From IMG/VR virus record IMGVR_UViG_3300005077_000026, positions 1 through 64,000 of that record: a DNA stretch of 64,000 bases. One strand, given 5' to 3'. The notes beneath the pieces were generated by a model. That model was not told where the DNA came from. It was given only the letters and a program-made list of their open reading frames with translations, and ran no database searches. Position numbers and translations under genes: made by a program. This stretch comes from a virus. Taxonomy: Duplodnaviria; Caudoviricetes. Below are positions 40,734 to 42,376 of this stretch, piece after piece. Positions within the stretch are counted from its first letter, which is position 1; every line of letters starts with the position of its first letter.

Positions 40734-41378
40734 TTAGGCTCCTACTATTCCATCGAATAGGATTTTGTACAAATCAGGACGCTTGTTCCAAGCATCGTAG
40801 TGATCCTCAGGAGTCACTCCCTTCCACCCTTTACAGGTAGTGGAGCAATCATATCCCGTCTCCAATCCCGCAACTATGTCAAACTGTGCCCAGAGTTCAG
40901 AGCAGACTGGCCAATCACCATGTAGAGTAAAAGACGACCATCGGAAGGGAACGGGACGGCTGAGGACTTTCTTATAGAAAAACCCCCTGAGCATGTCGGT
41001 TGCTAAGAGGGCTATTCTTGGAGCGGGGTAAATCTGACCCACATTGTCTTCTACTTCTTTTATCCCAATAGCGTATAGATCAGAGGTGAGATGGAGATGG
41101 CGGGCTATGATGACCTGTTTTCCTATGTATTCTCTAAGGTGGGAATAACTGATTTTCCACAAGGACTCTATTGTGGTTCCGTCTGTCACGAATAGTGGAA
41201 AGGAGGTCTTTACAAACCCCCCGATATGATTGATGGGACAAAGATCATCCCCCTCTAAATTCTGCCCAAATCGAATCGCCCTCGAAAGCAACCCATCTGA
41301 CTTTGTGCCAAATCGATCACCAGGAGACAGAAGTGGCAGAATTTCTGAAAGGGGGGTAGAGTTCATAATCAGCTCCAA
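40734..41378 (-). CDS. permuted papain-like (YaeF/YiiX, NlpC/P60-type) enzyme
   Basis: PGD..., N-terminal NHIG His, C-terminal VCSELW Cys. Confidence 0.65.
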   Translation of the reverse strand: MELIMNSTPLSEILPLLSPGDRFGTKSDGLLSRAIRFGQNLEGDDLCPINHIGGFVKTSFPLFVTDGTTIESLWKISYSHLREYIGKQVIIARHLHLTSDLYAIGIKEVEDNVGQIYPAPRIALLATDMLRGFFYKKVLSRPVPFRWSSFTLHGDWPVCSELWAQFDIVAGLETGYDCSTTCKGWKGVTPEDHYDAWNKRPDLYKILFDGIVGA

Positions 41379-42376
41379 TTTTTAGCCCATTGATGGATAG
41401 TCTGAACCTGCTGCGACTCTATTAACCTTCTGTGATCATTACATTTTATTTTAACATCAGTGAGCATATTTTGCAATACCTCACTCCTCCCCTTTGCATG
41501 TTTTGTAAACAATGCTGCCCAATCATCTCCCCCATATAAGTAGGCAGCGATTATTTTGTTTCTAACATAATCATCATAGATCCAATGGTAACCCCTTCTA
41601 TCTCCATGATGAAACAGGGTGCCGTGGGGGAAAATCCATTTCTTCATTCCCAGCACCGCCATCGTAAAGTTTAAAAAATTTTCTCCTCCCCCATAGATTC
41701 CCAACTCTTTTGGCCAACCCCCAAGCTTTGCCAGCTCCTCTCTGCCTATCATCACTCCACAGCAACTCATGCAGGGGACTTCAAAGGGCTGTTCTTGGTG
41801 TCTATAGGGAGTAAAGGAATAAGCACATTCTCCTTGATCGGGGTTCCACACAAACTTGTATATCAGTCTATGAGCTTCAAGCAGCTTGTAAGTAACGGGG
41901 AGATGCAAGGAGCCATTAAGGGTTGAACGTTCCTTCTCGTAGTGACAGAACATATCGAAGATTGAGTTGCGACTCGGGATGCAGTGCCCATCGCTGAAAA
42001 AGAAGATATCCCCTTCCGCCTTCGCCACTGCATAGTTTTTTGCTTGCCAATGACTCAGCTTGTCCGAGTAGACCACATACTTCAACCAAGGGTTTATCCG
42101 AGAACAAGCTTTGACTACCTCCCCTCCCTTGTCTTTTACAAAGGGGTTTTTGAAGTGATCTAAAACCCCATTGATCACTTCCTTGCTCACACCAAGCTTT
42201 ACAGCAGCAGCCTCTACCTCAGGCTCCCTTTGTCTTTCCACTTGCACACAATAATTATCCACAGCAAGGATCTCAAAATCACATCTCCCCTGCAACTCCT
42301 GCGCTATGCTCTGAATAGTAGACTGAATAAGGGGATCCTCATTGACAAAGGGGATTATCACCGAAAGCTTAGTCAT
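41369..42376 (-). CDS. GT-A glycosyltransferase with ppGalNAc-T-like motifs
   Basis: SVIIPFVNE, EILAVDN, FFSDGHC (DxH), YGGGENFLNF. Confidence 0.85.
   Translation of the reverse strand: MTKLSVIIPFVNEDPLIQSTIQSIAQELQGRCDFEILAVDNYCVQVERQREPEVEAAAVKLGVSKEVINGVLDHFKNPFVKDKGGEVVKACSRINPWLKYVVYSDKLSHWQAKNYAVAKAEGDIFFFSDGHCIPSRNSIFDMFCHYEKERSTLNGSLHLPVTYKLLEAHRLIYKFVWNPDQGECAYSFTPYRHQEQPFEVPCMSCCGVMIGREELAKLGGWPKELGIYGGGENFLNFTMAVLGMKKWIFPHGTLFHHGDRRGYHWIYDDYVRNKIIAAYLYGGDDWAALFTKHAKGRSEVLQNMLTDVKIKCNDHRRLIESQQVQTIHQWAKNWS

Follow-up and report, generated by a model that had tools for sequence, protein, structure and literature searches.

A phage-borne glycosyltransferase resembling the GT27 catalytic domain and its association with threonine/serine tags on virion proteins

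We studied a glycosyltransferase gene of an uncultured phage represented by IMG/VR virus record IMGVR_UViG_3300005077_000026 (85,260 bp, rated 99% complete). The first 64 kb of this record (positions 1 to 64,000) form the window, to which all coordinates refer unless stated otherwise. The gene lies on the minus strand at 41369 to 42376, and its 335-amino-acid (aa) product resembles the polypeptide N-acetylgalactosaminyltransferases (ppGalNAc-Ts; GALNT, CAZy family GT27), the enzymes that attach the first sugar of mucin-type glycans to threonine (Thr) and serine (Ser). We propose, with a probability of roughly 0.6, that the enzyme initiates O-glycosylation of Thr/Ser tags on the virion proteins of the phage. 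A sequence-only reading of the window had called it the initiating peptide-O-HexNAc transferase. The GT27-like nature of the protein is strongly supported by its predicted structure and by conserved metal and donor motifs, and comparative genomics ties it to Thr/Ser tags; the initiating position, the HexNAc donor, and a naked peptide as the acceptor are what we infer from these results. We refer to the protein as GT27-like and not as a GT27 member, because it has neither the lectin domain nor the membrane anchor of that family and its sequence similarity is only remote.

Resemblance to the GT27 catalytic domain

The gene and the motifs discussed below are as follows.

41369 to 42376, minus strand: GT27-like glycosyltransferase (P0001), 335 aa, predicted soluble GT-A catalytic domain only (open reading frame [ORF] translation, Pfam, AlphaFold2 [AF2], Foldseek, VIA)
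41984 to 41992, minus strand: D129-G-H131, DxH metal-binding motif (translation; invariant in 50 homologues; aligns with the DSH of FLDSHC in GalNAc-T10)
41681 to 41692, minus strand: G229-G-G-E232 and the adjoining N233, corresponding to the WGGEN Gal/GalNAc-T motif (translation; homologue alignment; alignment with T10, T4, and Toxoplasma T3 [TgT3])
41606 to 41611, minus strand: H256-H257, either of which may be the third ligand of the metal, with R261 and a loop of lower confidence after them (translation; conservation; GalNAc-T4 alignment)

The gene is real and conserved. Its ATG overlaps the stop codon of the preceding methyltransferase gene (ATGACTAA) and is preceded by GGAG 11 nt upstream, so the two genes are probably translationally coupled. 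Every motif string quoted in the sequence-only reading was found in the translation, namely, SVIIPFVNE (residues 5 to 13), EILAVDN (35 to 41), AKNYAVAKAEGDIFFFSDGHC (112 to 132), PCMSCC...GIYGGGENFLNF (201 to 237), and FHH (255 to 257). Their order and spacing had been matched to ppGalNAc-Ts by eye, and profile alignments and conservation in 50 homologues now take that match further. Across the 50 aligned homologues (alignment A1), D129, H131, G230, G231, E232, H256, and R261 are invariant and H257 is kept in at least 90%. The metal and donor motifs are unchanged in homologues of 33 to 80% identity from many phage lineages. The metal motif is DxH, without the DxD of GT2. The residue after E232 is N, Q, or H throughout the family and never D; ppGalNAc-Ts have WGGEN at this site, whereas inverting beta4-galactosyltransferases have WGGED.

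Pfam PF00535, the GT2 nucleotide-binding domain, matched the protein at 35.7 bits (cut-off, 23.3) over residues 5 to 41 only and also matched 50 of 50 homologues, and PHROGs held no family matching the protein. A single-sequence search of the PDB gave no significant match (GalNAc-T10 at an E value of 0.33). With the family profile, ppGalNAc-T10 was the best match (E = 2.9e-5), followed by T4, TgGalNAc-T3, PGANT9, T7, T12, T2, and T1 (E = 2e-4 to 3e-3 for the first five of these); TarP and TarS were matched over the N-terminal nucleotide-binding part only. The profile alignment places the family DxH over FLDSHC, G-I-Y-G-G-G-E-N over E-I/V-W-G-G-E-N/Q (IWGGEQ in T10, VWGGEN in T4, IWGGEN in TgT3), and F-H-H-G-x-x-R over V-G-H-V-F-x-K-R of GalNAc-T4. 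The counterpart of WGGENxE is thus Y-G-G-G-E-N-F, with Y for W, one extra Gly, and no evident second Glu, in a register that is ambiguous by one residue.

The AF2 model computed from alignment A1 had a mean pLDDT of 95, with a dip to 82 to 85 at residues 250 to 270. In a Foldseek search of the PDB, the best 50 matches were all ppGalNAc-Ts (E = 9e-15 to 4e-11), glycopeptide complexes among them. VIA, a structure search independent of Foldseek, gave a Z score of 27.1 for mouse GalNAc-T1 (8v9q; root mean square deviation of 2.8 Å over 283 residues, with model residues 1 to 335 on chain residues 114 to 420) and of 25.9 for Toxoplasma GalNAc-T3. The next folds were K4CP (19.4), WrtF (19.3), heparosan synthase (18.8), SpsA (18.0), TarS (16.8), and TarP (16.7), all of which act on sugars or polyols. 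Structure prediction and comparison with ppGalNAc-T catalytic domains, which had been suggested as a check on the assignment, therefore separate GT27 (27.1 and 25.9) from the next fold (19.4). An earlier caveat was that some bacterial GT2 enzymes with a DxH motif and a similar C-terminal domain act on sugars; the sugar-acting GT-A enzymes compared here score lower, and the peptide acceptor stays putative.

The whole catalytic domain superposes on that of the ppGalNAc-Ts (mouse T1; human T2, T4, T10, and T12; Toxoplasma T3). Shared features are the N-terminal SVIIPF.NE strand, the DxH motif, a GGE-N motif (in the ambiguous register noted above), a distal His with a basic residue after it, and a flexible loop beyond; the candidate acceptors in the phage are likewise Thr-rich disordered peptides. 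Unlike the ppGalNAc-Ts, which are eukaryotic and Golgi luminal, the enzyme is borne by a phage and presumably cytoplasmic. It differs further in its identity of only 12 to 17% to them, in the YGGGEN that stands for WGGEN, and in a helical insert, variable and about 55 residues long, after the second strand (alignment and AF2 model). Neither a membrane anchor nor a stem was found in the translation or the AF2 model, in which the first strand begins at residue 4 and the N terminus has no hydrophobic segment. A C-terminal ricin-type lectin domain was also missing, with no ricin Pfam match in the protein or the downstream ORFs, and the protein terminates at residue 335, where the catalytic domain ends. 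Judged from the model, it corresponds to a complete GT27 catalytic domain and nothing else, that is, to a remote, lectin-less, soluble, phage-borne variant of that domain.

The fold is also shared, at similar size, with bacterial GT2 enzymes that have a Glyco_transf_7C-type C-terminal half (RmlT, WrtF, GlfT2) and with K4CP, and clusters of such bacterial enzymes were among the neighbours in a protein language-model search. These rhamnosyl-, fucosyl-, and galactofuranosyltransferases and K4CP differ in using sugar or polyol acceptors and scored between 16.5 and 19.4 in VIA; the corresponding Pfam family, PF02709, touched only 3 of 50 members of the GT27-like family, weakly.

Thr/Ser tags and their association with the enzyme

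The genome has a siphovirus-like late module on the minus strand (terminase, capsid, head-tail proteins, a 212-aa protein in the major tail position, chaperone, tape measure, and fibre-like proteins), several products of which carry Thr/Ser-rich segments.

64577 to 65905 of the genome (beyond the window), minus strand: major capsid protein (phrog_29), ending in ...TLTSTSTTTSSSTTTTTTAA
62980 to 63669, minus strand: 229-aa protein of the head-tail region (neck), ending in 21 Thr/Ser residues and then AP, candidate acceptor (sequence)
60683 to 61321, minus strand: probable major tail (tube) protein, 212 aa, ending in ...TLTSTSTTTTTTAA, candidate acceptor, directly upstream of the chaperone and tape measure genes
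49808 to 52318, minus strand: 836-aa fibre-like protein, rich in Ser/Thr over about 100 residues, candidate acceptor (sequence)
60134 to 60637, minus strand: tail assembly chaperone
55547 to 59866, minus strand: tape measure protein, 1439 aa

The capsid protein and the 212-aa protein, probably the tail tube to judge by its position only, have the tag TLTSTSTTT...TTTTAA in common. At 49299 to 52318 (minus strand), the 836-aa fibre-like ORF and the next ORF (170 aa) have Ser/Thr repeats in different frames at about 49.8 to 50.0 kb.

We then looked at other genomes that carry the enzyme. IMG/VR holds at least 74 loci with the GT27-like gene, mostly on contigs of 40 to 100 kb. An ORF with a Ser/Thr tract lies within 10 kb in 46 of them, nearly always on the strand of the enzyme. 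Within the same distance, 29 distinct tags end no more than 3 residues from a stop codon (21 of the 74 loci), and Thr makes up 71% of their Ser/Thr. When whole records were scanned, six consecutive Thr codons were present in 40 of 43 enzyme-bearing records, including all 18 with a completeness of 90% or more, and these coding tracts were nearly all on the strand of the GT27-like gene; the reversed pattern, used as a control, gave counts near zero in most records. Since 12 of the 18 near-complete carriers have capsid proteins unrelated to that of this phage, the association recurs across lineages.

The homologues of this capsid either end at a conserved ...Y-x-L-x-V or add a Thr/Ser tag at that point. 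All six complete tagged relatives (G000, G010, G042, G043, G059, and G137) have the enzyme, and all six complete untagged relatives (G023, G026, G027, G033, G035, and G149) are without it. Ordinary PF00535 genes occur in four of the five untagged relatives tested (G149 was outside this test), so it is the GT27-like family, and not glycosyltransferases in general, that tracks the tag. We discarded five tagged capsids without the enzyme as counterexamples, as their contigs are all cut at or before the cassette of glycosylation genes to which the enzyme belongs (see below): G007 ends inside the first cassette gene, G145 three genes into the cassette, G012 and G146 within the fibre gene, and G127 just past the homologue of a 242-aa cassette protein, where the GT27-like gene normally follows. 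G148 was discarded likewise, its tail module reaching the contig end. A tree built from 98 capsid cores placed all tagged rows (57) in one clade (support of 100), with one change of state. The lineage comparison therefore represents a single evolutionary event, and the 6-versus-6 table has no statistical weight; Fisher tests on it were dropped for this reason.

We also sampled records by their tags. A random sample of 32 IMG/VR records was drawn from those that contain nine consecutive Thr codons; the enzyme was present in 2 of them, both of which belong to the three records with exact C-terminal tags; the remaining Thr tracts were mostly internal linkers or out of frame. The enzyme was present in 8 of 37 records sampled for TTTTTTA followed by a stop codon, whereas its base rate in IMG/VR is very low. 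The enzyme is strongly enriched with C-terminal tags, though such tags also occur without it.

One of the untagged relatives, G035 (IMGVR_UViG_3300037722_001025, locus L277), has neither tag nor GT27-like gene and encodes a pectate-lyase-like fibre whose internal linkers are rich in Thr and Pro. Immediately 3' of the fibre gene stands an ordinary GT2 gene, and this arrangement may be a different fibre-glycosylation set-up.

The glycosylation cassette and the proposed initiating step

The GT27-like gene is the last of a cassette that follows the late module, in the order GT4, GT1, GT2-like, hexapeptide acyltransferase, two methyltransferases, 242-aa protein, M15 endolysin, third methyltransferase, and GT27-like.

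47965 to 49242, minus strand: GT-B glycosyltransferase, GT4-like, head of the cassette (Pfam/PHROGs)
46850 to 47956, minus strand: GT-B glycosyltransferase, GT1-like (Pfam/PHROGs)
46092 to 46853, minus strand: GT2-like glycosyltransferase (Pfam/PHROGs)
44403 to 46137, minus strand: two methyltransferases (Methyltransf_23-like and Methyltransf_24) and a hexapeptide acyltransferase, tailoring enzymes (Pfam)
43699 to 44427, minus strand: generic GT-A glycosyltransferase, 242 aa, with an invariant LEDDW and no Pfam match (AF2, Foldseek, VIA)
43271 to 43717, minus strand: M15-family endolysin (phrog_465, E = 6e-51), flanked by the genes of the 242-aa GT-A and of the tagged methyltransferase
42369 to 43283, minus strand: SAM methyltransferase (Methyltransf_11) with a poly-Thr/Ser run close to, but not at, the C terminus and a basic tail (Pfam, sequence)

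Within 10 kb of the GT27-like gene, homologues of the GT4 enzyme were found in 59 of the 74 loci, of the Methyltransf_23 enzyme in 43, of the 242-aa protein in 42, and of the GT1 enzyme in 39. The tail proteins of the window had no detectable homologues in the 10-kb flanks of these loci, so the cassette travels between different phage types. PDB sequence searches with the cassette GT4, GT1, and 242-aa proteins gave nothing. The AF2 model of the 242-aa protein (pLDDT of 94.8) is a generic GT-A; by Foldseek and VIA it sits on a plateau of Z scores of about 15 with the sugar- or polyol-acting B4GALNT1, CgT, TarS, POMGnT1, and GnT-I, and GalNAc-T1 reaches only 12.8. The whole genome contains no dNMP hydroxymethylase of the thymidylate-synthase type (PF00303) and no gene of the Pfam Epimerase family (PF01370), which makes DNA hypermodification unlikely and suggests that donor sugars are probably supplied by the host.

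In the mechanism that we propose, a soluble, cytoplasmic, Mn2+-dependent GT-A glycosyltransferase would be produced along with the late proteins of the phage, from the final gene of the cassette. D129, H131, and H256 (or H257) would hold Mn2+ and a host-supplied UDP-sugar (HexNAc or hexose), and the first sugar would be moved, probably with retention of configuration, onto Thr/Ser hydroxyls of the disordered tags at the ends of the major capsid, tail-tube, and neck proteins and on the fibre stalk. The remaining cassette enzymes would extend, methylate, and acetylate the glycan. In this scheme the donor sugar and the stereochemistry are putative, as is any glycan on the virion itself.

Two other carriers bear on which enzyme takes the first step. 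The GT4 GT-B homologue is missing from both G010 and G076. G010 (IMGVR_UViG_3300009320_000008), a close relative in which the cassette adjoins replication genes and the capsid bears a 24-residue Thr/Ser tag, has two glyco-genes only (L157:1792-4164), a homologue of the 242-aa GT-A and the GT27-like gene. In G076, the GT27-like gene is accompanied by other GT-A enzymes and methyltransferases, with no GT-B in the 20-kb locus examined. In the two-enzyme system of G010, the GT27-like enzyme would be the better first-step candidate, because it specifically resembles peptide O-glycosyltransferases and the structural neighbours of the 242-aa protein act on sugars or polyols.

Several observations weigh against an initiating role on virion tags. 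Structural similarity does not fix the acceptor, and GT-A enzymes switch acceptors readily. A GT4 homologue is present in 16 of the 18 near-complete carriers and could initiate in most of these phages. The 18-of-18 figure for poly-Thr comes from genomes selected for the enzyme, with only six lineage-matched controls, of which two have poly-Thr, and the capsid-lineage comparison shows stable co-inheritance and not repeated correlation. In the TTTTTTA-stop sample, the near-complete genomes whose tag sits on an ORF of 80 aa or more divide into 6 with the enzyme and 7 without it; these 7 include the cut-off G127 and four genomes without any PF00535 gene. As 7 of 13 such genomes have no enzyme, the tags do not need it. 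A lead that would count in favour of a peptide acceptor is also a singleton: P0238 (423 aa, on a 3-kb Logan contig), a distant family member (E = 6e-33), carries an N-terminal PqqD-type domain (E = 1e-10) and retains the DAH, GIYGGEE, and HH..RRGY motifs. PqqD-type domains are the peptide-recognition modules of RiPP enzymes, and the fusion suggests a RiPP-type peptide glycosyltransferase within the wider GT27-like family. The genomic context of P0238 was not found in metagenome or viral collections.

In one alternative, the GT27-like enzyme would work in the same virion pathway as an elongating enzyme, the first sugar coming from the GT4/GT1 GT-B pair, in the manner of GtfA/GtfB, or from the 242-aa GT-A. 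Besides the 16 carriers and the 59 loci with GT4 nearby, this alternative draws on the established initiation by GT-B enzymes on Ser/Thr-rich proteins (GtfA/GtfB of serine-rich-repeat adhesins) and on those animal ppGalNAc-T isoforms that favour preglycosylated peptides, such glycopeptide complexes being among the best PDB matches of our model. We nevertheless consider it unlikely, because the GT27-like gene occurs together with tagged or Thr-rich proteins in G010 and G076, neither of which has a GT4 homologue, because the sole partner in G010 is a generic DxD GT-A with none but sugar- or polyol-acting enzymes as its nearest structures, and because the GT27-like enzyme lies at least 7 Z units nearer to peptide-acting enzymes than to any sugar-acceptor GT-A. 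It is less probable still that the acceptor lies outside the virion (a host envelope polymer, a lipid-linked sugar, a host protein, or phage DNA) and that the tags are unrelated linkers. Phage GT-As with such roles exist, for example, the prophage teichoic-acid enzyme TarP and the enzymes of serotype-converting phages, and TarP and TarS appear among our matches through the shared nucleotide-binding half; poly-Thr tracts without the enzyme are common in phage fibres (30 of the 32 random records, and the control G035), and untagged relatives carry generic GT2 genes. Yet TarP and TarS score about 16.7 against 27 for GT27 enzymes, the protein has neither a membrane segment nor Gtr-type partners, and the genome has no hydroxymethylase for DNA hypermodification. 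The gene moreover closes the late structural operon in apparent translational coupling with the cassette, poly-Thr is present in every complete carrier, and C-terminal tags on capsid and tail tube occur only in the enzyme-bearing clade. That the protein is a glycosyltransferase remnant without activity or with a structural role only is very improbable, given metal and donor motifs that are invariant across homologues from many phage lineages and a model that is confident over the whole protein.

The mycobacteriophages Che8, Corndog, and Myrna are established cases of virion O-glycosylation at the C termini of capsid and tail-tube proteins (Freeman et al. 2023, Cell Host Microbe 31:1216, as reported in PMC12363180 and PMC12619734). 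As in that system, phage glycosyltransferase and methyltransferase genes are found here alongside putative C-terminal acceptor regions on capsid and tail-tube subunits. The enzymes, in contrast, are unrelated beyond the GT-A fold, and the hosts here are probably not actinobacteria (see the MAG bins below). The Che8 enzymes are gp108 (GT2 plus Methyltransf_24), gp109 (GT2-like), and gp110 (GT25); gp109 and gp110 were rejected as homologues of the GT27-like family (hhalign probability below 1%).

If initiation on virion tags by the GT27-like enzyme is correct, phage self-glycosylation would reach well past the actinobacteriophages, the evolutionary origin of GT27 would become open to direct testing, and glycoengineering of Thr-rich tags would gain a minimal relative of the mucin-type initiators that is soluble and can be expressed in bacteria. 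To our knowledge, experimental proof of virion glycosylation comes only from mycobacteriophages, with enzymes unrelated to the GT27-like family; here a different, widespread enzyme family is tied to Thr/Ser tags of capsid, tail-tube, and fibre proteins in many unrelated lineages of uncultured phages. As far as we know, GT27, the initiating family of mucin-type glycosylation, is usually regarded as eukaryote specific, and full-text literature searches returned no account of GT27-like or ppGalNAc-T enzymes in phages, only automatic CAZy tables. A bolder proposal, which we hold to be rather doubtful, is that this phage family makes true mucin-type linkages (alpha-HexNAc-O-Thr/Ser) on virions and is the sister or the source of the eukaryotic initiators. 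On that proposal, mucin-like glycan brushes would cover phages of anaerobic sediment bacteria.

Distribution of the family and divergent members

A search of a 90%-clustered database gave 558 homologues at E values of at most 1e-3, most of them about 307 aa long and about 50% identical. An exhaustive search of a 50%-identity library gave 119, 230, and 1029 representative clusters at E values of at most 1e-30, 1e-10, and 1e-3, respectively. Almost all members come from uncultured phages, and the protein-atlas clusters are 91 to 97% viral. Among 50,697 deposited phage genomes there was no close homologue, and the sole weak match was in Tunturiibacter phage Tunturi_4 (23% identity). The 185,579 species genomes searched contained 7 GT27-like loci only, all on contigs of metagenome-assembled genomes (MAGs), which are probably binned phage contigs. 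Four of the bins are Desulfobacteraceae or Deltaproteobacteria, one is Proteobacteria, and two are archaeal, which weakly hints at Desulfobacteraceae or other Deltaproteobacteria as hosts.

Some members have other domain arrangements. P0124 (601 aa) and P0128 (740 aa) are tandem fusions of GT2 and GT27-like domains. The P0272 cluster (548 aa) comes from Caldilineaceae MAGs (Chloroflexota) and is cellular, one member lying on a 113-kb contig; a DUF6065 domain precedes its GT27-like domain. In G089 (IMGVR_UViG_3300024262_006261), a 56-kb piece of a large phage genome (17% complete), two divergent paralogues of GT27-like or GT-A type lie side by side at about 30.9 to 32.9 kb, and one of its ORFs, cut by the end of the fetched locus, runs out in about 60 consecutive Thr codons.

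In the window itself, the Methyltransf_11 enzyme encoded directly before the GT27-like gene has an 18-residue Thr/Ser run followed by the strongly basic tail APPVKKRK...RRRRKND. This methyltransferase could be a substrate in its own right or a protein that is packaged into virions; a homologue was found nearby in only 10 of the 74 related loci.

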